DNA from: a virus
DNA length: 64,000 bases
Direction: 5' to 3' (one strand)
UHGV virus genome: UHGV-1579991
In this document: piece after piece, positions 948 through 64,000 of the stretch
Numbering within the stretch: position 1 is the stretch's first letter
Layout: every line of letters begins with the position of its first letter
Program-made: the position numbers and the translations under genes
The notes under the pieces: model-generated
Databases searched by the model: none
What the model was told of the DNA's origin: nothing
The model's input: the letters and a program-made list of their open reading frames with translations, nothing else

Positions 948-2222
948 TTATATATTTGACAGCTGTTTGCGTTGCAAAATTGCATGACCGCAGTCATATA
1001 CTGCAACATAACCTGCATCAATCATCTCTTGCTCATTTTGTCCGCAGTCTTCAATATGTTCTTTTGTCTTTAAATGACACCAGTGTTTGCGAATTGTTGA
1101 CTTGTCATCTGACAGTTGCGGATTAAGTGCGAAGTTAGTTGAGTCTACTGGTTCACCTGCAAGATGCTTTCGAATGACATCAATGACTTCATTGTCATCC
1201 ATCCATTCGAATATTGTAATGCAAGTGTAGCCAAGCTTAAGAGCAAGCTGAGTTTTGTCGAAGTGATAGAATTTGCTAACATGCTTATTGTGTGTAGTAC
1301 GGCCAATTAAATATGCAAAACCATATGTTGAATTGTGTGACCAAGTTGGATTGATTTCAATCAATAATTTGCAATGTTCATTACTGTAATTGAGGTCATA
1401 TGACCATCGCTCAAGATTGACATCATCAAGCCCACAATCAATCCCAAGTTCTTGCAGCAATTTGTCATGCCACCAATGGTTTGCTCGTGATTTTACATGA
1501 CCTTGAGCATCACGACATTTAGCAGTCATACAAAAATATGGGACACCATAGCGTTGCATGTTAGTTGACGCAATTTTTTGCAAATCGCCTGCAGCAGACC
1601 CATATTTTTGTCGTTTTGTTGCAACTGCTACTGCAATATTGCCAAATTTGTTGCCATATCGTTTCTGTTTAGTTTCAAGTGCTTTGTCAATATTTATGAT
1701 GCCTCTTGTACCATGTTCTTTTTCACGTTTAGCTAAAATTGTTTGCATGTCGCCAAGTTTGTTGCCATATCGTTGCAATTTAGTTTCATGCATTTTTGCA
1801 ATATTTGTCCAACTATCACCATAATGTTGTCTATGTGTTGCAGCGCAACGTGCTTTGTCACCAAACATGTGTCCAAACTTTGCTAAACGACGCTCAACAA
1901 ATTTTTGCATGTCACCCATGCCATTACCATATCGTTTCTGCTTAGTTGCAACAGCCTTTTGCATATTGACACCTCGATAGCCATAACGCATTTCTATTGT
2001 TGTAGTAATTTTATCACTGATGACTTTTGATTGCTGAGCATACTCAAAACCATATTTACGCAAGCAGCCAATTCGCTTATTATATTTCAAACGAATTTTA
2101 CCATGTGATGTCTTCTTTGGGCCATACCATTCATATGGCGTTTCTGCAATCAATTTATCACGTTCAGCTTCAAGTTCTTTTATTCGAGCTTCAAGAGCTT
2201 CACCTATTAATTGTGTTGCCAT
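948..2222 (-). CDS. putative homing-endonuclease-like protein (paralog family, intact archetype)
   Basis: 424 aa ORF. N-terminal coiled-coil (EALEARIKELEAERD), array of K/R-YG-N-x-x-G-D-x-Q repeats, C-terminal nuclease-like region (WWHD...LIEINPTWSHN...GYTCITIFEW) and terminal VYDCGH motif. Family assignment is by motif only. Confidence 0.55.
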   Translation of the reverse strand: MATQLIGEALEARIKELEAERDKLIAETPYEWYGPKKTSHGKIRLKYNKRIGCLRKYGFEYAQQSKVISDKITTTIEMRYGYRGVNMQKAVATKQKRYGNGMGDMQKFVERRLAKFGHMFGDKARCAATHRQHYGDSWTNIAKMHETKLQRYGNKLGDMQTILAKREKEHGTRGIINIDKALETKQKRYGNKFGNIAVAVATKRQKYGSAAGDLQKIASTNMQRYGVPYFCMTAKCRDAQGHVKSRANHWWHDKLLQELGIDCGLDDVNLERWSYDLNYSNEHCKLLIEINPTWSHNSTYGFAYLIGRTTHNKHVSKFYHFDKTQLALKLGYTCITIFEWMDDNEVIDVIRKHLAGEPVDSTNFALNPQLSDDKSTIRKHWCHLKTKEHIEDCGQNEQEMIDAGYVAVYDCGHAILQRKQLSNI

Positions 2223-2281: not shown

Positions 2282-4273
2282 ATGTCTGAAGTTAAGCATC
2301 AAGTATATGACCCTGTAGCACAATTCAAATCTGCAGAAGAAAAGGAAGCTGCAAGAGTCGTGTGGTGTTCAGAAAGTGTGCGTCGTGCATATGCAGCAGT
2401 TGACCAAGGCCTGCCATTACGGTCGAATCCCTGGTTCTTTGGCAATATTGCATTGCGTAAGCCAGGACTATTGTATAGATACTCTGACGTAGAGCTACGT
2501 GAATGGCTTAGATGTGCTTATGATATACTGTACTTTGCCAACACATACGCTACACTCATGACACCTGCAGGTGTGCGAATGCATATTACGTTGCGACCAT
2601 ATCAGAAAAAAATGCTTCGTGCGTATCAAAAGCAAAAGTACATTATAAGTTTGTGTGGACGACAAATAGGCAAAACTACGACTGCTGCAATTTTCCTCGC
2701 TTGGGCTGTCATTTTCAATCGTGAGCTCAACATAGCAGTACTTGGCGACCGCTTGGCTACATCAAGTGAAAACCTGAACAAAACAAAAGACATCATAAAC
2801 AATCTGCCATTCTTTATGAAGCCTGGTGTGTTTGTTTGGAATGGTGGAATGGTCGCATTTGACAATGGCTGCAAAATTATCACAGGTACTGCTCAAAAGT
2901 CATCACTTGTCGGTAAAACAATTCACATCTTGTATCTTGATGAGCTCGCAATTCCGCCTGCTCAGCAATCAAAGACTCTTGTAGACTATGCATTGCCCAC
3001 AATTGCATCATTGCCAACTGGCAAAGTTATCGTAACATCTACGCCATCTGGTGATAATGTGTTCAAGACTTTGTGGCTTGGTGCAATTAACAAAACAAAT
3101 GGATTCTTTCCAATTCAAGTAAACTGGTGGGACATTCCAGGTCGTGATGAAAAGTGGAAAGCTGAACAAATTGCAATTCTTGGTGAAGATGCTTTCAATG
3201 AGCAATACAACTGCGTGTTCTTGTCAGGTGCAACGTCAATTTTCAATTCAAGAGCAATTGATGATATTGCAAGACGACAACAAAAGTATGAATTTGTTGC
3301 TGATGAGCGTCTTGAATCGCTGCTCAGATTTTTCATTGCTGATTCAGATGTTGGCACTGAACCTGAGCCGCATTCATTTATGACTTGGCGTGCAGATATT
3401 GACCCAGCGACACTCAAAAATGAAACATGTATCATCAACATCGACATCGCTGAAGGCTTATCTGGCGACTTTTCTGTCATACATGTGCATCGTATAGTTG
3501 ACATTGCAAAAGATGCTGAACTTGAACTTGATGCAAGCAATCTGTATGATATGTTTGACGATGACAAAAAATCATTGTTTGCAAAAGCAGTTGAAATGCA
3601 ACGTCAAATGTCGGCAACACAAGCTCAAGATGATGACGATGATGACGATGACGACTGGTTTGGCGCAGACGATGATGTTGCTCAAGGAGTCGATGCATAT
3701 CAAGATTATGCGAATGCTGCAGTAGAAGAGATTGGCTTGTGGCGCTCAAATGTGACGTCAATTAAAGTCATGGCTCTGTATTTGCAGTTCTTAATGACAT
3801 ATGTGTTTGACGCAAACAAAACAAAGATTATCTATGAACGCAACAAATATGGTGGAGAGTTTCGTTCATATTGTTTGTCTGAACGTGCACGCAATATTGC
3901 AATTGATGAAGAGAGCTTCGTAAGCTTCCAACGAACTCTTGGTTCAGAACAACTTGCACCAGGCTGTTCAATTACGCCTGGCACCAAACCAGTGTACGTA
4001 AGACAGCTCAAAGACCTTATTGAAACTGGCAAGATTCTTGAAAACAATGCAGATACGCAAAGAGAGCTTACATACTTTGGCGGTGTCAAAGGCAAGAATG
4101 GTCATGTGTCATATCAGGCATCACCAGGCTTCCATGATGACATTGCAATGACTCTTGTATCTCTTGCAGCATTTATGGACACTCGATGCAACGATTGGCT
4201 TGAACTGCTTGATGTGTTCTACAATGGCAGCAGTCAAACAAGTTCTGATGATGACGATGATGACTGGATTTGA
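2282..4273 (+). CDS. terL: terminase large subunit
   Basis: 663 aa ORF with Walker A-like P-loop (LCGRQIGKTTTAA) followed by a nuclease-type C-terminal half; contains poly-Asp tracts (DDDDDDDDDW and C-terminal DDDDDDWI). Confidence 0.8.
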   Translation: MSEVKHQVYDPVAQFKSAEEKEAARVVWCSESVRRAYAAVDQGLPLRSNPWFFGNIALRKPGLLYRYSDVELREWLRCAYDILYFANTYATLMTPAGVRMHITLRPYQKKMLRAYQKQKYIISLCGRQIGKTTTAAIFLAWAVIFNRELNIAVLGDRLATSSENLNKTKDIINNLPFFMKPGVFVWNGGMVAFDNGCKIITGTAQKSSLVGKTIHILYLDELAIPPAQQSKTLVDYALPTIASLPTGKVIVTSTPSGDNVFKTLWLGAINKTNGFFPIQVNWWDIPGRDEKWKAEQIAILGEDAFNEQYNCVFLSGATSIFNSRAIDDIARRQQKYEFVADERLESLLRFFIADSDVGTEPEPHSFMTWRADIDPATLKNETCIINIDIAEGLSGDFSVIHVHRIVDIAKDAELELDASNLYDMFDDDKKSLFAKAVEMQRQMSATQAQDDDDDDDDDWFGADDDVAQGVDAYQDYANAAVEEIGLWRSNVTSIKVMALYLQFLMTYVFDANKTKIIYERNKYGGEFRSYCLSERARNIAIDEESFVSFQRTLGSEQLAPGCSITPGTKPVYVRQLKDLIETGKILENNADTQRELTYFGGVKGKNGHVSYQASPGFHDDIAMTLVSLAAFMDTRCNDWLELLDVFYNGSSQTSSDDDDDDWI

Positions 4274-4280
4274 TTTGTGG

Positions 4281-4338
4281 CACATCATCACAAAACAAGC
4301 CAGCAGAATTGTCTGCTGGCTTGTTTTGTGATGATGTG
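4281..4338. terminator. 58-bp perfect palindrome (27-bp arms) between convergent terL and DHFR genes; putative bidirectional terminator
   Basis: cacatcatcacaaaacaagccagcaga / tctgctggcttgttttgtgatgatgtg are exact reverse complements; located between the stop of terL (4273) and the stop of the DHFR gene (4342). Confidence 0.5.
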
Positions 4339-4341
4339 CTG

Positions 4342-4845
4342 TCATCGTTTTCGATGGAAGACTTTGAATTTGTATCGTAACGTTCTGTCATTATCTGTGC
4401 ATGTGTATAGTGCAGACTCAGATTTTTTAGTCCACATTCGCCAATTGACTGCAGGAAATCGAACGTCGCCCTCAACATAATTGTCAATCATCGTCAAGTA
4501 CATTCTGTCTGCATAAATCATTGCTTCTTCAAACAACTTAGAACCGCCGATGATAAACATGTTAGACGCAAATGCAGACTTGCAATATGCTATTGCATTG
4601 GCTAGCGTGCTAAATACGAAATAGTCGCTTGTTGGCTGCAATGTAGAGCTTATAACAATGTTAATTCTGTCAGGCAAGGGTTTGCAATTCATCGACTCAA
4701 AAGTCTTACGACCCATGATGACAATGTGATTCTTTGTGAGTTTCTTGAAGTGCTGCAAGTCATATGGAATATGCCAGGGCAAATCACCATTGCGACCTAT
4801 GACATTGTTATTTGATACTGCTGCTATGATATTGATGTATTGCAT
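4342..4845 (-). CDS. folA: dihydrofolate reductase
   Basis: 167 aa; N-terminal DHFR signature IIAAVSNNNVIGRNGDLPWHIPYDLQHFKKLT...IVIMGRKTFES. Confidence 0.85.
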   Translation of the reverse strand: MQYINIIAAVSNNNVIGRNGDLPWHIPYDLQHFKKLTKNHIVIMGRKTFESMNCKPLPDRINIVISSTLQPTSDYFVFSTLANAIAYCKSAFASNMFIIGGSKLFEEAMIYADRMYLTMIDNYVEGDVRFPAVNWRMWTKKSESALYTCTDNDRTLRYKFKVFHRKR

Positions 4846-4860
4846 TGTTGATGAAGTTGT

Positions 4861-5172
4861 TTATAATGAGTCAGACACTACAGATGCATATTGCAAGACC
4901 TGTTTGCGAATATCACTGCCAATCAGTCGTTCATATTGCAGACGCAGTTCTGTAACTGTCATATTATCTGGCAGCTCTTTGACTTTGATAAAGATGCCTG
5001 CAGTGTCACCTTTAGCAATATAGCCTGTTTTCTCGCACATGTTACGCAAACAGTCAATATATGAATGTCGCTCAGATTTGACTGCACATAGCATTTGCTG
5101 CCTGCTAAATGACTCACCTACTGCAATGCTTGCAATGAATGACTTAAATGCATGCCAACGTGTCATTGTCAT
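4861..5172 (-). CDS. hypothetical protein
   Basis: 103 aa minus-strand ORF co-oriented and tightly packed with neighbours. Confidence 0.4.
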   Translation of the reverse strand: MTMTRWHAFKSFIASIAVGESFSRQQMLCAVKSERHSYIDCLRNMCEKTGYIAKGDTAGIFIKVKELPDNMTVTELRLQYERLIGSDIRKQVLQYASVVSDSL

Positions 5173-5627
5173 TACAGATTTGATTTGTATGTTTCACAGC
5201 GTTTCCAATCTGTTGCAGCTTTCAGACCCTTCAAGTATTCTACATACATTGGATGTTCCCATGCAGGGTCATCAGTTACAGCAACATAGCCTTTGCTATG
5301 CTTGTCTTTGTCAATAAGCATCTCTGCATATTTTGGCGCAAGCAGTCGTTTGTTTGCAGCCCAAGCAAAATGACATTTGATAAAGTGTCGCGTAATTCTT
5401 GTGTATGCCGCTTTGACAGACTTTAGCATATCAGGGTCTGCAATAACATCTGCCAAATTCTGTGGCGCTGCTGCAATGAAAACTGCTTCGCAGTCTTTAT
5501 GCTTTGCAGCTATTTGCTGCAATAAGTCTTTATGTGAATTGAGATGCAGAATTGTCGAACAAATGACTACAATGTCTGTTGCAGGTTCAATTCGTTTTGC
5601 TTGTTCTTTAAGAGATGGTTGTTCCAT
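5172..5627 (-). CDS. hypothetical protein
   Basis: 151 aa minus-strand ORF, abuts neighbouring genes. Confidence 0.45.
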   Translation of the reverse strand: MEQPSLKEQAKRIEPATDIVVICSTILHLNSHKDLLQQIAAKHKDCEAVFIAAAPQNLADVIADPDMLKSVKAAYTRITRHFIKCHFAWAANKRLLAPKYAEMLIDKDKHSKGYVAVTDDPAWEHPMYVEYLKGLKAATDWKRCETYKSNL

Positions 5628-5633
5628 GTTGTG

Positions 5634-5888
5634 TCAGATTTTGATATGTCGTAGCAAAATTTTATGCAAATTCAACAATGATTGCGCTGCATATGCTGGA
5701 TTTGGTTGAAGCTCTTTGCAGTTGTCGCATTTCAATGACTGCTCAGTTATTTGAGCATCTGTGTCAATGTTAATTGCAGTTTGACAAACTATGCATTGCC
5801 ATTTAAGCGTATGCGTATGTAAGTTGTCTACGAACAATGTAGAGCCAAACTTATCTTGCCAGTCTTCTGCGCATTTTGGATGAAACAT
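5634..5888 (-). CDS. hypothetical zinc-ribbon-like protein
   Basis: 84 aa ORF with paired Cys motifs (CAEDW...CIVCQ...CDNCK). Confidence 0.4.
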   Translation of the reverse strand: MFHPKCAEDWQDKFGSTLFVDNLHTHTLKWQCIVCQTAINIDTDAQITEQSLKCDNCKELQPNPAYAAQSLLNLHKILLRHIKI

Positions 5889-5892
5889 ATTG

Positions 5893-6900
5893 TTATGCGT
5901 TGTGAGCCCAGTTCAGCCAAACGTCATCTATTGACTGTGTAGTGTATTCACAATCATACAAGAAATTTACAAGAGCATCATAATTGCGTCTGCCCCACAA
6001 TTTGTGCTTCAAACTGCCGATTTCTTCGTCTTTCTTGTAATTGTTGTAGATTCGTTCAAGCATTGCTGAAGAGCCTGCTTTTGTGTCATATTCTGCCTCA
6101 AACAAACAGCCACAACTTGCTTTCTTTACAATTATGCGGTCATACATTGACACTACTGCTCTCAAAATGCTTTTTGACTGCAATCGTAACACATCAAGTT
6201 TATTGCATTGAGACTCCCATTTTTTGTACAATGTGTTGAATGATGGATTGTCAAGCAGCTTGTCTGCAATTGCGTATGCAAACGACATTGCATGCCAATC
6301 ATCTGTTCTGAAGTCCTCTGTGTTATGCTTATTGTAATATGCGCCAGTCGGTGCACAACCAATAAATGCTTCAAGTTGTCCAGCGTCATTTCGCAATATA
6401 CGCAATGAATGCTTATTAAAGAATGACACCCATATGCGATTATGCGCAACTATCACAGAATACTTGTTTTCACATTTTGCTGCAGCATCGCTTATTGAAC
6501 GACAATCAATCTGCTTGCAAATTGATGTTATGAATGCTGCAAACTCTTCATGCTTCTTGAGCTTGTTTTGCGTGACGTCATATAGATGCAACAAACCATT
6601 GACAACAGAGTCAAGCTTAGCTTCATCAGACTCAAAACTACCAAATGTTTCAAAGACTCGCATCTCTTTGTCAACAAGCATTTCTACGATTGCGTCAATA
6701 TCTTTGCTAAGCAGTGTTTTGGGTTCTAACGTTGCATGCATAAATGTCAATTGAAGCAGCGCATTCGCAGTTTGTTCAGACAGCACGTCATTTGCGCGCG
6801 CAATGTCGATTGCAGCTTTAAGTTCTGTTCGTTTGACTTCAAAATATCGTTGCAGCTGTAGTTTAAGTTGCTGAGAATAGACATTATTTGGTCTGAGCAT
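5893..6900 (-). CDS. hypothetical protein
   Basis: 335 aa minus-strand ORF; no motif recognised. Confidence 0.5.
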   Translation of the reverse strand: MLRPNNVYSQQLKLQLQRYFEVKRTELKAAIDIARANDVLSEQTANALLQLTFMHATLEPKTLLSKDIDAIVEMLVDKEMRVFETFGSFESDEAKLDSVVNGLLHLYDVTQNKLKKHEEFAAFITSICKQIDCRSISDAAAKCENKYSVIVAHNRIWVSFFNKHSLRILRNDAGQLEAFIGCAPTGAYYNKHNTEDFRTDDWHAMSFAYAIADKLLDNPSFNTLYKKWESQCNKLDVLRLQSKSILRAVVSMYDRIIVKKASCGCLFEAEYDTKAGSSAMLERIYNNYKKDEEIGSLKHKLWGRRNYDALVNFLYDCEYTTQSIDDVWLNWAHNA

Positions 6901-7003
6901 ATTTGGGATGGACTCTTACGTTTATTTAAGAATAAAGTACCACAAGTTGTCAAGTTTTGCTAACTTTGACGACTTGTGGTACGTCTGTTTTATGCATGCA
7001 CTG

Positions 7004-7372
7004 TTATTTGATTGCGCGTTCAAACATTCTGCAGCACCAGTCTTTATATGCTGGATTGCCCTTAACATCTGCTCGGAATGCACAGTTGATAAGAGTCTTC
7101 TCTTCATCAACAAAGCATGCATAACGACAGTTTGCACAGCAACGAGCATCTTCTTGCTTAGTACAGAATGCTGCACATGTCATGTCATCTTCTGTGTTGC
7201 GAATTGTTTTTGTTGGCGTGTATTCATAAGTGCACTGACAAATGCCATTATGTTCACGATGAAAGAAGCAATTTTTGCAAACATGCGCAACTTCTTCAAC
7301 TGGTGCTGATGCTGCATATGTTTGTTCTTGCTCTACTGCAGACTGTGCAGCAGCTTTAGTCTTTTTTGCCAT
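7004..7372 (-). CDS. cysteine-rich hypothetical protein (start placed at internal Met, MAKKTKAA)
   Basis: The track ORF 7004..7456 begins inside a tandem repeat, so its first 28 residues are a repeat artefact; ATG at 7372..7370 is the likely start. Product carries more than 12 Cys (CKNCFF...CQC...CAAFC...CCANC...CC). Confidence 0.45.
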   Translation of the reverse strand: MAKKTKAAAQSAVEQEQTYAASAPVEEVAHVCKNCFFHREHNGICQCTYEYTPTKTIRNTEDDMTCAAFCTKQEDARCCANCRYACFVDEEKTLINCAFRADVKGNPAYKDWCCRMFERAIK

Positions 7373-7397
7373 TGTATCAAATGTTTGTATTTGTAAG

Positions 7398-7473
7398 TTG
7401 TTTTGATGCAAAATGCAAAACAATATAAAATTGTTTTGATGCAAAATGCAAAACAATATAAAATTGTTTTGAT
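7398..7473. repeat. 33-bp tandem direct repeat (about 2.3 copies), each unit containing an 8-bp inverted repeat
   Basis: Unit ttgttttgatgcaaaatgcaaaacaatataaaa at 7398-7430 and 7431-7463, partial third copy to 7473; internal ttgttttg...caaaacaa inverted repeat. Lies between the ligase stop and the Cys-rich gene start. Confidence 0.7.
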
Positions 7474-7475
7474 AT

Positions 7476-9380
7476 CTACAAAGATTTGAACAATTCCTCG
7501 TATGTTACAATTTTCTTGCCTTTTGCAAGTGCTGCTTTCATTTTGTTCGACAGCTTGTTGACATCATTTGTGACAACATAGTCACATGCATCAATGTTTG
7601 CACCGACATCTTCAAGCTTACCATTTGCTGCATCAATAAATGCACCTTTTGTTGCCCAAGTAGGCTTAGGCGAGCCTGTCATGACAACCTTGATTGTGTT
7701 AGCATGCGCAGATGCTTCTTTATGCATTTCATTGAACATCACGAAGCATTGTGGAAAGCGCTTGAGTAATCTTTGTATGACATTCAACTTTATGAGCCTG
7801 TCAATTGGCTCCATGCTCAAGCCCTTAAAGTCATACTGGCAATTGCTAAAGTACGCAGACAACTGATATGCAGCTTTACCACCGAGACCAGGAATCTGCA
7901 TGCATTCAATGAAATGCGACAAGTGAATGCTACTGAAGCGTTCACGTAAGCCTGCAATGACTGTACGGTCATTTTTGCTGTTTGTGTCAAACTGCAGCAG
8001 CTCAAACAGTCGTTCATTGTCAACTTCTTGCACAATGCAGAACAAGTCTTCAATTGTGGGCGCATCAGAGAATGTCAACATGACATCAAGATTGTCTTGT
8101 GCAATAAGCAATGCTTCACAAATTTTCGTAGCATAAACCCAGCCAAGCCCATCAATATTAAGCTTGCAAACGCCTTTGATAAACCTCGTGCATCTTGCAA
8201 ATTCCTCAGGCATCATCAAGTGAATGCCATCGACATATGCATGTACAGGAATGTCAGCTTTGCTGCTATCACCAGGTTCAATACATTCTTGAATGTCTGG
8301 AATAATGTCACCGCCCTTTTCAATACGAACAAGAGCGCCTGGCCAAATACCATTTGCATGCAAAAAGCCATAGTGAAATGCTGAAGCTGCTTTTACTGTA
8401 GTGCCATCAAGCTCAACAGGCTCAAGTTCAACTCTCGGAAAAAGCTCACCATTGATTCGCTGACGCCAATCAATTCGAGTCACTCGAGTTACAGCAGACA
8501 TTGCGTCAAGCTTCAATGCAACCATGTTTGCATATTCTGCTGCATTTGCAAACTGCTGCTCAATCCACAAGTCATCTGCAAAAGGCTTGACTACAATGCC
8601 ATCAATGCGATATTTGAATTCTGAACGCCCATTGGCAATTTTTGTGCAAGTTTCTGCAAACTCATTGTAATCAGTGACTTCAAAGACTTCTGCAATGAAT
8701 TCTGCAGGCCAGCCAACTTTAGCAAGAGCATCTGCAGGATTGGTTTGCTCATATGTTTTGCCATCAAGTGTGTCAGTCAGCATGTATGCCATAGGGTCAA
8801 TGTCTTCCATGCCACACATGTCTAATGACTTCACAAATGCTGCAGCAGTATTGCGCTCATTTTTGTATTTGACAGAGCCATCAGCATTGAAATGATATTT
8901 TTGTGCAAAAATGTCTTTTGCAATGACAGCCTCAAAGCGAATTTGATATGGCTGTTCTGCTGCAGCAAGCTGCATCGGCACTTTGCCTGCTACAACAAAT
9001 TTGCGCGTGACATCATAGCCCGTATAGCCATCACCACGAGTAACAACTTTTAGCAATCTGCCATCAGTGTCGTAATGTGCTTCACAGCCCATGCCATCAT
9101 ACTTGTGCATAAGCAGCATTTCATGACCAACAATGTTGCACACAGTATCATGCAACGCAGTTGTAAACTGTGACTTTGTATGAATTGCAGCAAGACTCAA
9201 TGCAGGTGTAAGATGCTTAACTTCTTGTTTATTTGACTCTTCAAAGCGAATCTTATGTTTAATGTCGCTATTTGCAAGAAGCTGCTGTTCAAGAGCATCA
9301 AATGCCTCATCAGACATTATCGGATTGCCTGCATAATACGCAGCTATTGCGTCATGGTACATATTGAGTGTATCAGTCAT
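7476..9380 (-). CDS. ligA: NAD-dependent DNA ligase
   Basis: 634 aa; LigA-type N-terminus (YYAGNPIMSDEAFDALEQQL), adenylation KxDG motif (MHKYDGMG), C-terminal HhH-like region (GLGGKAAYQL). Confidence 0.75.
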   Translation of the reverse strand: MTDTLNMYHDAIAAYYAGNPIMSDEAFDALEQQLLANSDIKHKIRFEESNKQEVKHLTPALSLAAIHTKSQFTTALHDTVCNIVGHEMLLMHKYDGMGCEAHYDTDGRLLKVVTRGDGYTGYDVTRKFVVAGKVPMQLAAAEQPYQIRFEAVIAKDIFAQKYHFNADGSVKYKNERNTAAAFVKSLDMCGMEDIDPMAYMLTDTLDGKTYEQTNPADALAKVGWPAEFIAEVFEVTDYNEFAETCTKIANGRSEFKYRIDGIVVKPFADDLWIEQQFANAAEYANMVALKLDAMSAVTRVTRIDWRQRINGELFPRVELEPVELDGTTVKAASAFHYGFLHANGIWPGALVRIEKGGDIIPDIQECIEPGDSSKADIPVHAYVDGIHLMMPEEFARCTRFIKGVCKLNIDGLGWVYATKICEALLIAQDNLDVMLTFSDAPTIEDLFCIVQEVDNERLFELLQFDTNSKNDRTVIAGLRERFSSIHLSHFIECMQIPGLGGKAAYQLSAYFSNCQYDFKGLSMEPIDRLIKLNVIQRLLKRFPQCFVMFNEMHKEASAHANTIKVVMTGSPKPTWATKGAFIDAANGKLEDVGANIDACDYVVTNDVNKLSNKMKAALAKGKKIVTYEELFKSL

Positions 9381-10838: not shown

Positions 10839-12182
10839 TCAGAATTGAAACATGTTATTGATAAATGCGTCGCCAAACTGCGCATCTGCAGCTTTTGACG
10901 TTGTGTCATACGTTGCTGCATTGATGCCAAGTGCAGTTATTGTTGATTGCGCATCTACAAGTTCATACACTTTGCAGCTCGGCTTTGTAATGTCTGTAAA
11001 CGACATTGTGTACATGAAGTTTTCAAAGATATGTCTTGGTACTTCACGTGCATTCAAACATGCAAGTTGTCTATTTTCTGCAAATCGCGCCTTGAGCCAT
11101 TCAAAGTCATCTGCAGGTACTGAGTCAACATTCATGAATGTCTTATATGCTGCAGTCAAAAACATTGCAATGACTTCGTCATCATACAAATCTTCACCAA
11201 GCATATATCGCATGCCAGGTTCCAACTGTTTTGCATTGTTAGTTTCAATACCAAGAGACTTCAATGCATCGTAGATTTGGCCTACAGATAAATGCGACCA
11301 ATTGTTGCCACGTTTCTTGAGCTTGCCAAACAATTCTGGGATGTTGTCACCAGCATCACCAAGCACAATCTTGTAAAACAAGAAACTTGGCACATGTTCA
11401 TGAATCTCAGCATCAACATACTCAAGCAATGCTGCATATGGGTTGTCAAGAATACGTGTTTTAACTTGAGCACCAGCAAAGCTGTCGAAGATGCTGCCGC
11501 CGACATTCTGCGACTTTTCACCAGCAAGTTCTTTGATGTGTTCAAGCACAAACTTGTCGCCCATCAGTACTCGAGACTTCTGCCACCCATTTGCTTTGCA
11601 GCCATTTTTGATGATTGCATATGCTGAACATGCGCCAGTGTTTGTGTTGACACATACACATTGAGTCAAGTCTTTATCAGTGCCTTGATACAGCACATTG
11701 CGGCCTTTTGATGTTGCATATCTACTAAGCATGAAGATGACATCATCAGCCTCTGCTTCAGAAAGCTTGATGTGACGAATGCCATGTACTTCTTGCATCA
11801 ACTTAAGCCATTCAAAATATACACCATAAACTTTGAGCCAGTTGATTGTCTGGTCATACGTTCGAGTGCCTTTGTAACCAGCATCTTCACCTTGTTCAAA
11901 GCCTTCTCTTGTCAAATATTGATGCTTTGAGCGCCACAAATTCGACTTTTTGTCATCGACAGCAATAATGACATCATCAACGACATCTTCAAGTCTACGA
12001 AGCTCATTACAAAGGTCGAGCGTTAACTTGGATATCAAAGACAGTCTTGATGCATTCTCATTCTTTTCGAATGACAAGTCTGTACCTGATTTTGCTAATA
12101 CTGGCACTCTGCTCTTAACCCACCAGCTCCCGTCAATTACGTAAATGAACTTGTGATTATGAGTATTGTCAAGCTTTGTCAT
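10839..12182 (-). CDS. 5'-3' exonuclease / flap endonuclease (RNase H-like)
   Basis: 447 aa; FEN/5'-3' exonuclease-like motifs (IYVIDGSWW, GYKGTR, SEAEADDVIFMLS, QGTDKDLTQ). Confidence 0.65.
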   Translation of the reverse strand: MTKLDNTHNHKFIYVIDGSWWVKSRVPVLAKSGTDLSFEKNENASRLSLISKLTLDLCNELRRLEDVVDDVIIAVDDKKSNLWRSKHQYLTREGFEQGEDAGYKGTRTYDQTINWLKVYGVYFEWLKLMQEVHGIRHIKLSEAEADDVIFMLSRYATSKGRNVLYQGTDKDLTQCVCVNTNTGACSAYAIIKNGCKANGWQKSRVLMGDKFVLEHIKELAGEKSQNVGGSIFDSFAGAQVKTRILDNPYAALLEYVDAEIHEHVPSFLFYKIVLGDAGDNIPELFGKLKKRGNNWSHLSVGQIYDALKSLGIETNNAKQLEPGMRYMLGEDLYDDEVIAMFLTAAYKTFMNVDSVPADDFEWLKARFAENRQLACLNAREVPRHIFENFMYTMSFTDITKPSCKVYELVDAQSTITALGINAATYDTTSKAADAQFGDAFINNMFQF

Positions 12183-24677: not shown

Positions 24678-24921
24678 TTTGTGTATGTTCTTGATTTGCT
24701 TGTTCTGCTAAGTTGTTTATGAATGCTTTGAGCAATTCAATGATTGTTGTTAGTAACTGAATTTGAAACAATACAATGCTAAACATGACAATTGCTACAA
24801 TGCAAATTGAAATGAAGAGCATATTGATGTCAAATTTGTTTGCTATCAATGTTTGCAGCCAAGTTATGACTGCAAACATTGAAATCAGTATGAATACTTT
24901 GTGCTGTGATAACGATTTCAT
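24655..24921 (-). CDS. hypothetical small membrane protein
   Basis: 88 aa; two hydrophobic segments (VFILISMFAVITWL, ICIVAIVMFSIVLF). Confidence 0.4.
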   Translation of the reverse strand: MKSLSQHKVFILISMFAVITWLQTLIANKFDINMLFISICIVAIVMFSIVLFQIQLLTTIIELLKAFINNLAEQANQEHTQNDSDTAN

Positions 24922-25637
24922 TTGAAATGTGCGGATGTCGGATTAGTGTCGGTCATTCTAATGTGCCAGTCATAAATGAACCATCTTGCGAGGTCATCAT
25001 TTTTGATGTTATGAGTTTTGACATACTGTTCAGGGCCTAATGCCTCGCCGGTTTCAGGATTGACTGCGAAGTGGGATTCATCTACATTAGTAGACTTGTT
25101 TTTGATGTTTGAGATTCGGAGCTTTGTATGCAGTTCAGTGCCATCAGATTGCAGTGTTTTGACATAGAATGCAGTTTTTGTCGTTGCTTCATTGTCAAGC
25201 CATACACCGAACTTAACTCCGTGCGATTTCCAGTATGCATTGTCAGCATCCCTGATTGCTTTGAAGTTCGGGTCATCAAGCCAAGGCTTGAAGACATATA
25301 CAGCATGTTGTTCCTTTCGAGTGATTTCGCCTTTGCCTTCACAAACTGTATGATACAGCCGCATTGCAGTTTCTTCATCGAAATAATAAGTCAGATTGCC
25401 TGGCTTATCGAATGTGCCAAACTGCTGACCATCGATTACGAGAATGAATGTGTAACGTGAATCCTTGAAGAACTCTACTCGTACAGGCTGTTTGTGCTGT
25501 CTGCTGTTAAGCAGTCTGTCAATTGTAATGACTGCCCAGTTGGTGCCTGTCTTTGTTTTGTTGCCGTGAAACAGTTCAGGATATGAAACTGTGTAAGGCA
25601 ATGCTTTGTACTTCCAATGTTCATTAAAACTTTTCAT
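24918..25637 (-). CDS. hypothetical protein
   Basis: 239 aa ORF; two copies of the upstream motif at 25700-25830. Confidence 0.5.
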   Translation of the reverse strand: MKSFNEHWKYKALPYTVSYPELFHGNKTKTGTNWAVITIDRLLNSRQHKQPVRVEFFKDSRYTFILVIDGQQFGTFDKPGNLTYYFDEETAMRLYHTVCEGKGEITRKEQHAVYVFKPWLDDPNFKAIRDADNAYWKSHGVKFGVWLDNEATTKTAFYVKTLQSDGTELHTKLRISNIKNKSTNVDESHFAVNPETGEALGPEQYVKTHNIKNDDLARWFIYDWHIRMTDTNPTSAHFK

Positions 25638-25900
25638 ATGTAGAGATTTTTGTAGTTTGTATCAATTGCATTCTATATCAATTGCATCTTGTATCAAATA
25701 CATTATATTGATATATGATAATTGTACTACAAAAATCCCAAATTTGCACACTTTGATAATCAAAAGTGCAAACAAAATTCAAAGTTATATTGTACATCAT
25801 AAAGTGCAAATTTGCACTTTATGATGCTGCAAAATGTTTGCATAAAAAAATAAGCAGCTTAGATTGCTAAGCTGCTGTCATTGTATGTATGCAGTCACTG

Positions 25901-26437
25901 TCATTTGTAGTGTTCAGTTATGTATGCAGAGCATAGCAAAACAACTGATACACAAATGACAATGTATGTTGGCGTAATCAGTGTCACATTGAATAACAAT
26001 GCAGTCAATGCGCATACTGTTACTGATATGAGTGTTGAAATGAATGCAGCATATGCACTAAACTTGCTTTTTAACAAACGTTCGATGATATATGTTGTCG
26101 CAACAGACAGTAAGACTACACATGCAAATAACAACAGCCAAGTTGAGTTTGACGTTGTCGGCTCTTCAATAAACTGCAATGTTGCTGATGGCACTTCAAT
26201 ATTGTTTGATGCTTGTAATGTGCCACTTGCAGCATCTGCGTACATCACAGTTAAGTAGTGTCGTTGAATTTCTGCTGCGTCTACTTTATAGATTCTATGC
26301 CATGCAACATCTGATATGATGTATGTTGCAGCCATAAATGCAGCAATGCATAGCATATAAGAGCCAAACTTTGCAATCGGTTTCATGCAAATATATTTTT
26401 GTTTGTATATGTACATAAAAGAGCAAGTTCTCCACAT
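25901..26437 (-). CDS. hypothetical multi-pass membrane protein
   Basis: 178 aa with several hydrophobic stretches. Confidence 0.45.
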   Translation of the reverse strand: MWRTCSFMYIYKQKYICMKPIAKFGSYMLCIAAFMAATYIISDVAWHRIYKVDAAEIQRHYLTVMYADAASGTLQASNNIEVPSATLQFIEEPTTSNSTWLLLFACVVLLSVATTYIIERLLKSKFSAYAAFISTLISVTVCALTALLFNVTLITPTYIVICVSVVLLCSAYITEHYK

Positions 26438-26764
26438 TGAGAACTTGCTCAGCTGACCTGTTACCAGGTGAAAGCGTGGTGCAGCACCTTGTGCTGCAAT
26501 GGCTATGCTGCCATCGCCATAACGGGCTGAGCATTGCCCAGCATCATTACACGACCAGCTGCATTAAGCGTACGCTTTGCTTTGTTGAAAAATTTGCCAG
26601 TTATCTGGTATCTGCACATCTATTCAAGCGACCTACTATGCAATCAAATGCCTGTCGAGCCCAATGTTTGAGCAGTTGTTTGTCAGATGCTCAGCTGACT
26701 GCAGTCTTTCTGAGTGTATCAAGTTCAGCGATTCTGCATCTTTGCTAAATGGCAATGGTTCAGG

Positions 26765-26800
26765 TGGACTCGCCGAGAATCGAACTCGGGTCTTACATAG
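26765..26800 (-). other. tRNA-like fragment (T-arm plus acceptor 3' strand only)
   Basis: Minus-strand read CCGAG-TTCGATT-CTCGG-CGAGTCC-A is a canonical T-arm plus acceptor 3' strand, but I could not find a matching 5' acceptor strand, D-arm or anticodon arm before the next tRNA. Confidence 0.3.
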
Positions 26801-26845
26801 CGCATCCTTGACTTGGTCCTGTAAACAGGGTTGTCAACATGCATT

Positions 26846-26916
26846 GCAATACGACAGGACTCGAACCTGCGACCTCGGATTGGACGTCCGCGCTCTTACC
26901 GCTGAGCTACGTATTC
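26846..26916 (-). tRNA. tRNA, anticodon uncertain (possibly Gly-UCC)
   Basis: Minus strand: acceptor GAATACG/CGTATTG (G1-G72 mismatch), D-arm GCTC-AGCGGTAA-GAGC, T-arm GCAGG-TTCGAGT-CCTGT; anticodon stem irregular (4 bp), loop CGTCCAA. Confidence 0.5.
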
Positions 26917-27009
26917 TTATCAATTGACTGCACTGCAATGCAATCAATCGTGCCAATGATATTTGACACGCATAATTGCAGTTATGCGTAACAATTCAAA
27001 TGTCATTTG

Positions 27010-27082
27010 AGCCAACTGCAGGAATCGAACCTGTAACCTGCTGAGTACAAATCAGCTGCTCTACCAATTGAGCTAAGTTGGC
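27010..27082 (-). tRNA. tRNA-Thr (anticodon UGU)
   Basis: Minus strand: acceptor GCCAACT/AGTTGGC, D-arm GCTC-AATTGGTA-GAGC, anticodon stem GCTGA/TCAGC with loop TTTGTAC, T-loop TTCGATT. Confidence 0.75.
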
Positions 27083-27164
27083 ATAAAGTCGTTGGGCCAT
27101 TGCAACCCAAACCTATCATCTTTGCCTAACCAAAGATGCAAGCGCTCTCTTACACCACGACTTG

Positions 27165-27235
27165 TAGCCGAACTTGGAGTCGAACCAAGCTTTCGAGAAT
27201 GAAAATCTCGCGTCCTAACCGATAGACGAAACGGC
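27165..27235 (-). tRNA. tRNA-Glu (anticodon UUC), non-canonical acceptor stem
   Basis: Minus strand: D-arm GTCT-ATCGGTTA-GGAC, anticodon stem CGAGA/TCTCG loop TTTTCAT, T-arm CTTGG-TTCGACT-CCAAG; acceptor GGCCGTT/TTCGGCT has two U-U mismatches at its base. Confidence 0.5.
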
Positions 27236-27419
27236 CAAGAGCAGTTCAAGTCTGCAGCATTGAACTGCGGAAACAATGCCTGTACGGGCAACCAATTGTG
27301 CAGATACAGCGACATTGCAAAATCACACCGAACCAAGTTTGTGGCTCTTCTGTCTCATAAAAACAAGTAATCATTACACTTGGCACCAATGATTTTGATG
27401 TAAAAATCGGTGTGTTACG

Positions 27420-27504
27420 CGGAGAGTAAGGGATTCGAACCCCTGGTACGTTGCCGTACAGTGGTTTTCAAGACCACCGCCATCGACCGCTCGGCCAACT
27501 CTCC
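27420..27504 (-). tRNA. tRNA-Ser (anticodon UGA), type II
   Basis: Minus strand: acceptor GGAGAGT/ACTCTCC, anticodon stem GTGGT/ACCAC loop CTTGAAA, 16-nt variable arm, T-arm AGGGG-TTCGAAT-CCCTT. Confidence 0.75.
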
Positions 27505-27697
27505 ATAAAACATTGCATAAGCATTCTTATCTCTTGATGAGGCCAAGTAGCTAATTTGGCAAGTTTGTTATATCTATCGTGACTGTTGCAGTTTGTTGTC
27601 ACTCAATACACAAAACTTTCGAACATTCATTGACAACACTGCAATATCGCTTTTTAAGCTCAGCCATCAATGTATTTATGCAATGTATAACAATTCG

Positions 27698-27779
27698 TAG
27701 CCAAACCGGGACTTGAACCCAGACTCCTAATGGAACAACATTTTGAGTGTTGCGTGTCTACCAATTCCACCATTTGGCC
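27698..27779 (-). tRNA. tRNA-Leu (anticodon CAA), type II
   Basis: Minus strand: acceptor GGCCAAA/TTTGGCT, anticodon stem CAACA/TGTTG loop CTCAAAA, 13-nt variable arm, T-arm CTGGG-TTCAAGT-CCCGG. Confidence 0.7.
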
Positions 27780-27876
27780 ATTTGCAAATGCAAGCTGTTT
27801 CACAACTGTTTGCATTTGCATTTGCATTGTTTAACACACTAAAATATGATTCATCTAATCAAAAACCAGAGAATTG

Positions 27877-27949
27877 TCGAGAATGTGCGATTTGAACGCC
27901 AATTATACGTCCCAAACGTATCGTGTTACCGGATTACACTACATTCTCG
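27877..27949 (-). tRNA. tRNA-Pro (anticodon UGG)
   Basis: Minus strand: acceptor CGAGAAT/ATTCTCG, anticodon stem ATACG/CGTAT loop TTTGGGA, T-loop TTCAAAT with a weak 3-bp T-stem. Confidence 0.6.
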
Positions 27950-27956
27950 TTAATTG

Positions 27957-28027
27957 TTGAACTGTCTGGACTCGAACCAGAAATATATCATCCAAAGTGA
28001 TATGTGTTACCATTACACCACAGCTCA
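27957..28027 (-). tRNA. tRNA-Gln (anticodon UUG)
   Basis: Minus strand: acceptor TGAGCTG/CAGTTCA (one G-U), D-arm GTG-TAATGGTAA-CAC, anticodon stem TATCA/TGATA loop CTTTGGA, T-arm TCTGG-TTCGAGT-CCAGA. Confidence 0.7.
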
Positions 28028-35160: not shown

Positions 35161-35230
35161 GAGGTTTAGTATATTTGACAGTATATTATTTATAGATATA
35201 TAATACTACATACTTGCAGATTTTGCACTT
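35161..35230 (-). promoter_or_regulatory. putative late-type promoter cassette (TATAAATA box on the minus strand)
   Basis: Minus-strand read GTGCAAAATCTGCAAGTATGTAGTATTATATATCTATAAATAATATAC...; shares the core attatttatagatatataatactac...attttgcac with 51127-51200; sits 10-70 nt upstream of the 34900..35154 start. Confidence 0.45.
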
Positions 35231-39452: not shown

Positions 39453-42400
39453 TCAATTACATGCTGAATGTCCGCAGTTGGTGCATCGAACACAGCCGTC
39501 AAACTTGACCATGTCACCACCGCATTCAGGACACTTTGCATACATCTTTGAGCCATCTTGAATGTGTAGTTTCAATGCGCGACCAATTGCTTTGCAGAAT
39601 GTGCCAACAGATGCAAAGCTTTTTGCAGTTTGGTCGACAATTTCACCAAGGTCGATGCCATTGCGAAGCATCGTTGAGTACAGTCGAGTAATTGTTTGCT
39701 GCTCATCTGAACCAAGACGTTCTGAGATATTGTCATAGTGTTGCAAGAATGACAAATTATCACCAAGCTTGTAGTGCTTCTTATCAGTCTTTGTGATTGT
39801 CGTTTGTTCAATGCCTTGCAACTTGTCAAATTCGTCTTTGTCAAGTTCAAATGCAAAGATTTCATAGGGTCGACCATCATCACAACCTACAAGAATACAC
39901 CACTTACGCTTATACACTGATACACAATACACTGCAGCAGGCAATACAGGTTTTCGTTTTGAGCGATGACCAGACTGCAAGACATGCGACTTATCCTTAG
40001 ACTGCTTATCATCTTTTACGAGAACACCTGCACGTGAGCCATCTCGATAAATTGTGCAACCCTTGCAGCCAGATTTCCATGCAGTCAGATAAATTTCACG
40101 AACAAGCTCTTTTGTTGCAGAGTTTGGAATATTGACTGTTACAGAAATTGATGAGTCAATGTACTTTTGCAACGCGCCTTGCAGTTTAACCTTGCCAATC
40201 CAGTCAACATCTTCAGTAGTTGCCTTATAGTATGGTGATTGAACAAGCAATTCATCAATGACTGCTTGCGAAGCATTTGACAACCAAGCTTTGATACGAG
40301 ACATTTCTGCTTCTGACCATTCAATGCCAGTATCTTTGACAAGGGTGAATTTGTCATCACCAAGCTGCACTCGTTTGCAAATCCACTGCATCAATGGGTA
40401 GTGAACTACAGCGTATTCAATGAACTTGTCACCAGTAGTCTCATCAATGAAGTTGATGTCTGCTTCATTATCAACTGCAGTAGGCTTTCGACGACGTTTG
40501 TGCAGTGGCATAAAAACAGGTTCAATGCCAGAAGTTGTCTGAGTCATCAAAGCTGTGGTGCCAGTTGGCGCAATTGTTGTTGTGTTGATGTTTCGACGAC
40601 CAAATTGTTGATAAGTTGTGATGTGCTCATCATCAATCAGTTCAGATAACATACGCTGAATGAACTTTGACTGCACATCTGTGTCATAGTCGAATATTGC
40701 AAATGAGCCACGAATCTCTGCCAAGTCAATTGACGCTTCATAAGTCGCCTTTACAAGCCATTGTTGCATAGTGACTGCGAAGTCAATTGACTCTTGTGAA
40801 CCATAGCGCAAGCCAAGCATTGCCATTGCATCGCCAAGTGCAAGAAAGCCCATGCCATATCGACGAGTATTTGTCAATTTGTCATAGACTTTATGCCACA
40901 AGTCAAGCTCAGTTTTCTTAATGTCAAATGATTCTTTGTCTGATTCAACCTTTGCAATGATTCGTTGAACTGCTTCAATTTCAAGCTGCACAAGGTCATC
41001 CATGATGACTGCACAGTCATATGTATCTTTGTAGAATGCTTCAAAGTCAAATGATGCATCAGCAGTCCAAGGATTAAGCACATATGCAGTCAAATTGCGA
41101 TGTGATAAAATGCAGCTTGCATATGCTGCAAGAGGCTGTTCACCGCACTGCCTGTTGTTTACAAATACTTGCATATGTCTGTCATTTGTATCATTGACAG
41201 CGTCAAATGACCCTACAAAAAAGTTGTGATAATCATCTACAGTGCCATTATACACATCTTCTACACCATCAAGTTCAACAGTGTGTACCCTATGATTGTA
41301 GTAATCTGCAAACTGCTTAAACTTTCTGTATGACGCATGAATAGCAGCGTCAACATTGTTAGATTTGCATTCATTTGCAAATTCTTCATAATTTGGTCGT
41401 TTGCCAAGTTTTTGCTTTGCTGCAGTATATACAAGCACTTGTTCTTTAGACCATTTTGCTTGCTGAGCTGCGTGGCCGCATTCGGCAGAACAATATGCAA
41501 CTTCTCTATAAAACCAGTGCGCCCAAAATTCAGAGCCGCAATGTTCGCAAATACGTTTAACATACACTTGTTTGTCAACAAATTTAGTGTCATAGCCCAT
41601 ATTGCGAACTTTAATTGCTGTTGCTATGCATCTGCTATCAATGCCAACTAAATCAGGATATTTAACATTAGCGCGCGTTGCACAATGACTTAAAAATGCA
41701 TCAATAGAGCCAAATGTTTCTACTAATTTATTGTACCTGTAGCCAGACCATGCAACAGTATTATTGCCTGGCGCATAGCGCATATAGTATTCTAATTCTT
41801 TGCGACTAAGGCCTCTTCCAACTTTTGCAGTGCATTGCGTAACATAGTCTACAATTGATTGCACAGTTGTATCAATATCATATCTGCCATTACGTTCACC
41901 AGAAGTAGATGCACTCATTTTAGCAGAATACTGTGCAAAACGTTCTGCATTTGCTTTAATTTTGTATATTGGATTGTTAGTGCCTCTACGTTCAAGTGCA
42001 TGTAATGCATCATGCTCTTTTTTGCTTAGTACTTGTAAGTTATTTGGGTCATTGTTTAATGAATTGCCATCGATATGATGCACTACTGTGTGTGTAGCAT
42101 CAAACTGTTCAGCATGACAGTATTCTGCTATTAAACGATGCTCAAACTTATATACACCATTATTCAACACTGCATAATATGGTGCAGATTTGCTATTTGT
42201 TTGATAGCTAAGCACTTCATCAAATGAACATTGTTGTCTTGCAATAATTGCTAAGCTATCACCATGCTGTAATTGTCGTGCTTCTTTGTATGTGCCATCT
42301 GTTAACTTAAACTTGTGATTACCTGTGCAACGAATAACATCACCAGAATCAAGTGTAACTTTGTATATTTGCACATTTGAGCCTGTTTTGCGTGGATGCC

Positions 42401-43439: not shown

Positions 43440-43504
43440 TGTAACAGTGCATTTAAGTGTTTTAACAGTTTTATGTATAAATTGTACAACAATGGGCAAA
43501 ATTT

Positions 43505-51126: not shown

Positions 51127-51200
51127 GTAGTAGAGGTTTGTTAATTTATTATTTATAGATATATAATACTACGACAATGCAAATTTTGCACTGTCGTAGC
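51127..51200 (-). promoter_or_regulatory. putative late-type promoter cassette (TATAAATA box on the minus strand), duplicate of 35161-35230
   Basis: Minus-strand read GTGCAAAATTTGCATTGTCGTAGTATTATATATCTATAAATAATAAATTAACAAACCTCTACTACA-ATG; shares the core attatttatagatatataatactac with 35183-35208. Confidence 0.5.
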
Positions 51201-63704: not shown

Positions 63705-64000
63705 TTATGCGTCATCGTACAGTGAATGACTTATCGTCATCTTCTGTAGTAGTTGGGTCATCAATTACATCGTGGCCAATACCTGACATGGGCTCTGGCT
63801 CAGGTTCCGGTTCTGGTTCCGGTTCTGGTTCCGGTTCTGGTTCCGGTTCTGGTTCCGGTTCTGGTTCCGGTTCTGGCTTTGGCTCCGGCTTAGGCTCTGG
63901 CTTAGGCTCTGGCTCAGGTTCCGGCTCAGGTTCCGGTTCTGGTTCCGGTTCTGGTTCCGGTTCTGGTTCCGGTTCTGGTTCCGGTTCTGGTTCCGGTTCT
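63705..64000 (-). CDS. hypothetical protein with (Glu-Pro)n / (Lys-Pro)n dipeptide-repeat region, partial (N-terminus beyond window)
   Basis: Minus-strand frame is open from the window edge to stop TGA at 63707..63705; ggttccggttct repeats translate as EPEPEP...EPKPEPKP, ending ...[29 protein letters not shown]. Confidence 0.5.

Follow-up and report, generated by a model that had tools for sequence, protein, structure and literature searches.

A cysteine-rich orphan gene under purifying selection beside the NAD-dependent ligase of a T4-like human gut phage

The cysteine-rich ORF and its surroundings

The window (the whole stretch of 64,000 nucleotides analysed here) holds a short cysteine-rich ORF in a region of DNA-replication and nucleotide-metabolism genes, and all genes around it lie on the minus strand. 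The features that matter for what follows are these:

10839-12182 (-): 5'-3' exonuclease, upstream of the cysteine-rich ORF, with small unknown ORFs between it and the ligase
7476-9380 (-): NAD-dependent ligase, directly upstream, with Pfam adenylation and OB domains
about 7395-7473 (-): 33-bp tandem repeat, 2.3-2.4 copies, 100% matches, putative promoter/operator
7004-7372 (-): cysteine-rich coding sequence, 122 aa, 13 Cys
6937-6982 (-): hairpin with a 17-bp stem, 21 nt past the stop codon, its inverted repeat 94% complementary
5893-6900 (-): 335-aa protein of unknown function, next gene downstream
5634-5888 (-): 84-aa ORF with a zinc-ribbon pattern (CxxC...CxxC), phrog_35685, function unknown, two genes downstream
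4342-4845 (-): DHFR, beyond two unknowns that follow the 84-aa ORF
39453-43499 (-): ribonucleotide reductase large subunit, 1348 aa, containing an intein splicing domain with an HNH endonuclease inside (Pfam)

Elsewhere in the window are a gp44-like clamp loader, both topoisomerase II subunits, a large terminase and a Gp23-like major capsid protein; on this gene content the source is a T4-like large phage, of ~175 kb and from the human gut. A cluster of seven tRNA genes (26846-28027 (-) and 26412-26854 (-)) reads Gly-tcc, Thr-tgt, Glu-ttc, Ser-tga, Leu-caa, Pro-tgg and Gln-ttg; beside it ARAGORN called a permuted 'tmRNA*', possibly a false positive, which runs into the end of ORF 25901-26437. 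The large terminase (2282-4273 (+)) is the sole clear plus-strand gene in the window, and the 424-aa ORF adjoining it (948-2222 (-)) has weak matches to a homing endonuclease (PHROG) and to DUF7487. At the far end, 63803-64000 consists of ~33 GGTTCC copies running past the window end; the minus-strand frame there encodes (Glu-Pro)n with a few Lys-Pro, then ~27 residues and a stop, and is the C-terminal part of a gene starting outside the window.

The cysteine-rich ORF runs on the minus strand from an ATG at 7372 to a stop codon at 7004-7006, and its 122-aa translation is MAKKTKAAAQSAVEQEQTYAASAPVEEVAHVCKNCFFHREHNGICQCTYEYTPTKTIRNTEDDMTCAAFCTKQEDARCCANCRYACFVDEEKTLINCAFRADVKGNPAYKDWCCRMFERAIK. 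Cysteines occupy residues 32, 35, 45, 47, 66, 70, 78, 79, 82, 86, 97, 113 and 114, a share of 10.7%; in the window's long minus-strand ORFs it is 1.99% (binomial P(>=13) = 1.1e-6). They form two CxxC motifs (32/35 and 79/82) set 44 residues apart, two CC pairs (78/79 and 113/114), one CxC (45/47) and two Cx3C (66/70 and 82/86). An earlier note on this DNA had described 7004-7372 as encoding a protein of roughly 120 aa with more than a dozen cysteines in CxxC and CC arrangements; its start, coordinates and count all agree with ours. Longer forms beginning at TTG (150 aa, or 135 aa in ENA gene calls) were rejected. We take 7372 as the right start, because those extensions come only from reading through the 33-bp tandem repeat that lies upstream, and because the 62%-identical homologue likewise begins with MAKK.

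The ORF is a protein-coding gene

The cysteine content by itself proves nothing, because the spurious antisense ORFs of the window are Cys-rich too. That observation, the lack of any visible Shine-Dalgarno sequence upstream of the ORF and the want of homologues outside one clade would all suit a non-functional chance ORF, or a true gene on the other strand in the form of the antisense 133-aa ORF at 6908-7309 (+). Against both stands the pattern of substitution. Compared with a 97%-identical strain (L001), 18 of the 22 substitutions fall at codon position 3 of the minus-strand frame; 18 are synonymous and four non-synonymous, for a dN/dS (omega) of 0.047. Compared with the 62%-identical homologue of locus L007, dS is saturated and dN/dS is 0.19. 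All relatives that carry the ORF, L007 and L008 among them, keep it intact, and it is free of frameshifts at 62% identity in L007, where the antisense frames carry 2-5 stops. Nine amino-acid variants were seen across strains, none of which affects a Cys or His. The ORF also exactly occupies the gap between its co-oriented neighbours, and a missing Shine-Dalgarno sequence is the rule for the genes of this phage, with such a motif at only 1 of the 42 minus-strand genes in the window. The ORF is a real protein-coding gene under in-frame purifying selection, an answer by sequence analysis to the concern of the earlier note that it might not be translated, and the chance-ORF or antisense reading is effectively refuted.

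The regions upstream of the 42 minus-strand gene starts are A/C-rich. The rarity of Shine-Dalgarno-like motifs suggests a Bacteroidota-type host or initiation independent of such sites. The window ligase is closest, at 24-30% identity, to the ligases of Chryseobacterium, Tenacibaculum and Sphingomonas jumbo phages, and from these affinities together with the lack of Shine-Dalgarno sites we infer a Bacteroidota-type host.

Two lineages and no known family

A word-indexed protein search of 5.8 billion clusters matched three proteins, all of one clade, and phmmer, run exhaustively over 1.84 billion representatives at 50% identity, matched two. All homologues fall into two lineages, P0001 and P0002. 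The first is 97% identical to the window protein and comprises 44 member sequences on 23 contigs of up to 177 kb, from human gut metagenomes; the third protein matched, P0003, is a frameshifted fragment that belongs with it. The second is 62-65% identical and 113 aa long, on contigs of at most 2.6 kb. The family profile built from these known homologues has an Neff of 1.2.

Curated libraries returned nothing: no Pfam family matched the full protein or either half at E<=10, no NCBIfam model (zinc-finger families included) and no PADLOC-DB profile of defence-related proteins matched at E<=1, PHROGs gave no match, and nothing meaningful was matched among PDB sequences. The same was true of tblastn against 50,697 GenBank phage records, and the ORFs of T4 have no sequence relationship to the protein. 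In IMG/VR, scanned with profile patterns as well as with two degenerate DNA motifs, the gene turned up in this phage alone, on two ~175-kb contigs, and a pattern scan of JGI metagenomes found nothing. A single match in GTDB (one genome per species) was rejected as spurious, being 14 residues out of frame inside a metalloprotease gene. No paralogue was found in the window or the fetched loci, and a literature search found nothing published on the protein. The contigs bearing the gene have the label gut metagenome, and PRJEB14847 is cited in publications about bias between metagenomic protocols and about compressing metagenomes. By these searches the protein is an orphan family with no detectable cellular counterpart, and the family and its cysteine signature are undescribed in every library searched. 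The sensitive homology search that the earlier note had proposed thus ends in two lineages and no known family; its author's failure to recognise a zinc-finger class is borne out by Pfam, PHROGs, NCBIfam and the PDB sequences, and the housekeeping zinc-ribbon protein that it had allowed for did not appear among cellular sequences, where the sole match was the spurious one in GTDB.

Conservation pattern and predicted metal binding

Between the two lineages, which are 62-65% identical, 11 cysteines (32, 35, 47, 66, 78, 79, 82, 86, 97, 113 and 114) and two histidines (His38 and His41) are invariant; conservation does not extend to C45 and C70. Identity to P0002 rises along the chain, with three zones in the window protein:

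residues 1-28: variable tail rich in Ala, Lys, Glu and Gln, 39% identity
residues 29-71: moderately conserved N-core, 56% identity
residues 72-118: highly conserved C-core, 81% identity

FHREHNG, CCANCRYAC, INCAFRADVKGNPA and DWCCRMFE stand as invariant blocks. The protein, of pI 6.8, is hydrophilic (GRAVY -0.54), as is its N-terminus MAKKTKAAAQSAVEQEQ, and no stretch of it looks hydrophobic or like a signal sequence (Kyte-Doolittle 19-mer mean at most 0.48); for that reason it is presumably cytoplasmic. Invariant Cys and His that cluster usually serve as metal ligands in such a reducing compartment, so that a protein with this pattern probably binds metal.

Structure prediction, another check proposed by the earlier note, yielded no usable fold: AlphaFold2, run on the three-sequence alignment at full length and for the core only, gave models with mean pLDDT of 41.7 and 42.0, and a Foldseek search of the PDB with a predicted model (pLDDT ~42) returned one meaningless match (E 5.6).

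The gene evolves at a rate like that of the neighbouring ligase (62-65% identity between lineages for the cysteine-rich protein, 62% for the ligase). Anti-defence genes often evolve fast, in an arms-race pattern. Conservation equal to that of the ligase, with a C-core at 81%, means that a housekeeping-like interaction with a partner would fit no worse than an arms-race factor, and the ligase-like rate speaks mildly against the latter.

Flanking elements

Between the ligase stop (7476) and the ATG (7372) lies a gap of 103 bp, most of it taken up by the 33-bp repeat, which spans 7395-7473 or 7398-7473 depending on the register. Each copy contains the palindrome CAAAACAAT-n5-ATTGTTTTG and promoter-like hexamers (TTTGCA / TATATTG), so that two near-perfect 23-bp palindromes lie 33 bp apart (three helical turns) just upstream of the gene. 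Nowhere else in the window does the repeat occur (0 chance matches expected), and it is kept in the 97% strains with three substitutions in the distal copy; the L007 upstream region has no repeat or palindrome sequence in common with the window. A sigma-70 scan found no consensus site on the strand of the gene, and an ad hoc promoter consensus (TGCA-N-TATWWA) was rejected, its matches being too few and non-specific for a promoter class. We read the repeat as a putative promoter/operator region.

On the other side, the hairpin lies between the gene and the next ORF (ATG at 6900) and is followed by the U-rich stretch CUUUAUUCUU. Its predicted energy is -24.6 kcal/mol (z = -4.2, with 0 of 200 shuffles as good). 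At the same position L007 has a stem-loop of unrelated sequence, at -27.6 kcal/mol (z = -5.5). A simple terminator scan did not call the window hairpin, which we regard as a putative terminator-like or RNA-stability stem-loop.

Repeats of a similar kind were seen elsewhere. A tandem repeat of TTGTATCAATTGCATC (x2.6) stands at 25657-25697, upstream of the gene at 24918-25637, and in L017, a more distant relative, three to four CGTATCAATGCAA-like units at 5074-5229 separate the ligase from a 342-aa gene; both consist of TTGCAT / ATCAA-type words and resemble the 33-bp repeat. Since related repeats precede other genes, they look like general phage promoter or regulatory elements, and may represent a phage-specific class of promoter or regulator site. 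Separately, an identical 19-nt motif, GTATTATATATCTATAAAT, occurs in intergenic positions at 35188-35206 (-) and 51151-51169 (-), where 0.01 would be expected by chance. It contains a TATAAAT element resembling a T4 late promoter, and it is absent upstream of the cysteine-rich gene.

The ligase neighbourhood in relatives

The cysteine-rich gene stands immediately downstream of an NAD-dependent ligase in both lineages, a synteny attributable to common descent, as the two ligases are 62% identical. The next more distant relative found via the ligase was L017 (IMG/VR; ligase at 3001-5073, 48% identical). There the ligase is followed by a 157-bp repeat-rich spacer and then by a 39%-identical homologue of ORF 5893-6900, with no cysteine-rich ORF in the position after the ligase; the homologue of the 84-aa ORF is a 91-aa ORF at 6436-6711, after the 342-aa gene. 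Because the L017 ligase is directly followed by the homologue of the next gene, the cysteine-rich gene appears accessory, or optional, at the ligase locus, on this single comparison. With two lineages and one relative compared, a gain in one subclade or a loss from the other would account for this. The ORFs next to the ligase of Chryseobacterium phage MA9V-2, Sphingomonas phage PAU and Tenacibaculum phage pT24 have 0-5 Cys and are unrelated.

Bacterial LigA carries a tetracysteine Zn finger. The matching region of the ligase has at most two Cys in the window phage and one Cys each in the L007 and L017 ligases.

Proposed role and alternative readings

The reading that we favour, with confidence a little short of even, is a cytoplasmic protein stabilised by several metal sites, expressed from its own transcription unit and binding a host or phage macromolecule. 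The 11 invariant Cys and two invariant His would hold the fold via several metal centres; they would suffice for about three Zn(Cys/His)4 sites, or alternatively for one or two Fe-S clusters plus one Zn site. Within the DNA-replication/nucleotide-metabolism module the gene would form a cassette, running from the tandem promoter-like repeat through the ORF to the stem-loop, an arrangement supported by the strong stem-loops in both lineages and by the unique upstream repeat. It would be transcribed as its own unit, presumably in the pre-late phase of infection, and its product would most likely act stoichiometrically, as a factor of the host-takeover or modulator type and not as a core replication enzyme. 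A host-takeover or anti-defence role is compatible with such accessory, cassette-like behaviour. A bolder version, which we consider improbable, would make the protein a new multi-metal (Fe-S or poly-Zn) mini-fold, carried on a mobile accessory cassette that neutralises a host defence or redirects a host enzyme; its signature would be the invariant C-x2-C ... CC-x2-C-x3-C ... CC, and its user a Bacteroidota-type gut phage.

Among the alternatives an Fe-S redox protein ranks first, ahead of a ligase cofactor and an autoregulator, with a chance ORF, to which we give next to no weight, last. The first of these would be a carrier resembling a high-potential iron-sulphur protein (HiPIP) or a ferredoxin, with one or two [4Fe-4S] clusters, working for a redox enzyme of the phage or of its anaerobic gut host; we regard it as unlikely. 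It draws on a pattern, C-x-N-C-x-[FY] ... C-x-[YF] ... C-x-x-F, present in both halves of the protein and reminiscent of the HiPIP signature (CANCQF...C...WCxxW), on a ferredoxin-like motif end in P0002, on adjacent CC pairs, which are uncommon in zinc fingers, and on the ribonucleotide reductase that the phage encodes. The profile evidence is against it. PF01355 matched neither the full protein nor its halves nor P0002 at E<=10, in the same Pfam search that scored the C. vinosum HiPIP control (sequence exact against PDB 1cku) at 85.5 bits. A six-sequence HiPIP HMM with filters off (--max) scored -10.5 to +2.1 bits, placing all four Cys in register only in the N-half of P0002, at 2.1 bits; hhalign gave a probability of 1.8% over 13 columns, and BLASTP an E of 0.06 in a single comparison. 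The four Cys are spaced 2/11/18 in the N-half and, in the C-half, 2/14/15-16; HiPIPs usually have C-x2-C-x8-16-C-x12-15-C with an aromatic residue after the last Cys, and the third gap of the N-half is longer than that range. On the profile and alignment scores membership of the HiPIP family was rejected, as was an internal duplication of the four-Cys unit (shuffle p = 0.06 for the window protein and 0.82 for P0002). HiPIPs are moreover periplasmic proteins, and the N-terminus of the phage protein has no export signal of their type (by the same Kyte-Doolittle maximum of 0.48); nor was a radical-SAM or other Fe-S client enzyme seen in the window.

The position of the gene suggests a cofactor of the ligase or replisome, for instance a trans-acting Zn module replacing the lost tetracysteine finger of a LigA-like enzyme. 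The gene follows the ligase in both lineages and matches it in evolutionary rate, and that ligase has only adenylation and OB domains in Pfam, with its Zn-finger region depleted of Cys. Common descent accounts for the synteny, though, and the L017 ligase also lacks the Zn-finger Cys, yet no cysteine-rich gene comes after it; the MA9V-2, PAU and pT24 ligases too are without a cysteine-rich neighbour. The strong stem-loop and separate promoter-like region point to an independent unit, and the protein has no Pfam match to the LigA Zn-binding domain (PF03119), C79-x2-C82-x14-C97 agreeing with only the first three Cys of the LigA arrangement C-x2-C-x~14-C-x~5-C. We hold a cofactor role to be quite unlikely.

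An equally doubtful candidate is a metal-dependent DNA-binding autoregulator acting on the upstream palindromic repeats. Two near-perfect palindromes found nowhere else in the window would offer it an operator, small Cys-rich proteins are often Zn-finger DNA binders, and the N-terminus is basic and Lys-rich. On the other hand, the C-core of the L007 protein is 81% identical, yet the upstream repeat and palindrome are not conserved there; related TTGCAT/ATCAA repeats precede other genes, at 25657-25697 and, before a different gene, in L017; and the protein as a whole is near neutral (pI 6.8), with no match to a helix-turn-helix or known zinc finger.

Significance

Large phages often encode small accessory proteins rich in Cys, and a small Cys-rich orphan accessory protein is in that sense of a familiar kind; the family and its pattern are what the searched libraries do not describe. 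The modest value of the case is a real, strongly constrained gene with 11 invariant Cys in an unclassified arrangement, restricted to a single clade of a ~175-kb phage, uncultured and from the human gut. Its behaviour as an optional cassette flanked by signals of its own gives it a profile suited to functional screening for toxicity, for interaction partners and for activity against host defences. The accessory-protein repertoire of Bacteroidota-type phages is poorly explored; should the product turn out to be an Fe-S protein, or a novel metal-binding fold directed at a defined target in the host, a new family of phage accessory proteins would be gained.

Comparison with known systems

Of the known metal proteins, HiPIPs (PF01355) share with the phage protein a C-A-N-C-x-[FY] motif in each half, followed by C-x-x-F, a roughly comparable four-Cys spacing (C-x2-C-x11-14-C-x15-18-C per half) and a similarly small domain size. 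They have four Cys, whereas the phage protein has 11 that are invariant, is without a signal peptide and is located in a phage replication module. The 2x[4Fe-4S] ferredoxin motif CxxCxxCxxxCP is echoed in P0002, where C-C-A-N-C-R-Y-A-C-P reproduces the C-x2-C-x3-C-P end; its first spacing, however, is collapsed to CC, the window protein has Phe in place of Pro, and there is one such motif only, with no match to a Fer4 family. Zinc-ribbon and treble-clef Cys4 fingers of small phage proteins, of which the 84-aa ORF at 5634-5888 is an example, offer the likeness of a small Cys-rich phage early or replication protein with CxxC knuckles, probably stabilised by metal. The two CxxC of the phage protein are not paired at ribbon spacing, though; it adds two invariant CC doublets and a Cx3C, and no curated zinc-finger model matches it (Pfam E<=10, NCBIfam E<=1).

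The closest parallel in position is with the small, non-essential early ORFs that T4-like phages cluster around their DNA-metabolism genes. Here too a short orphan ORF sits among genes for replication and nucleotide metabolism, in a phage that has Gp23-like, gp44-like and topoisomerase II proteins, and the gene is found in some relatives and missing in others. The analogy is positional only, without a sequence relationship for the protein itself.
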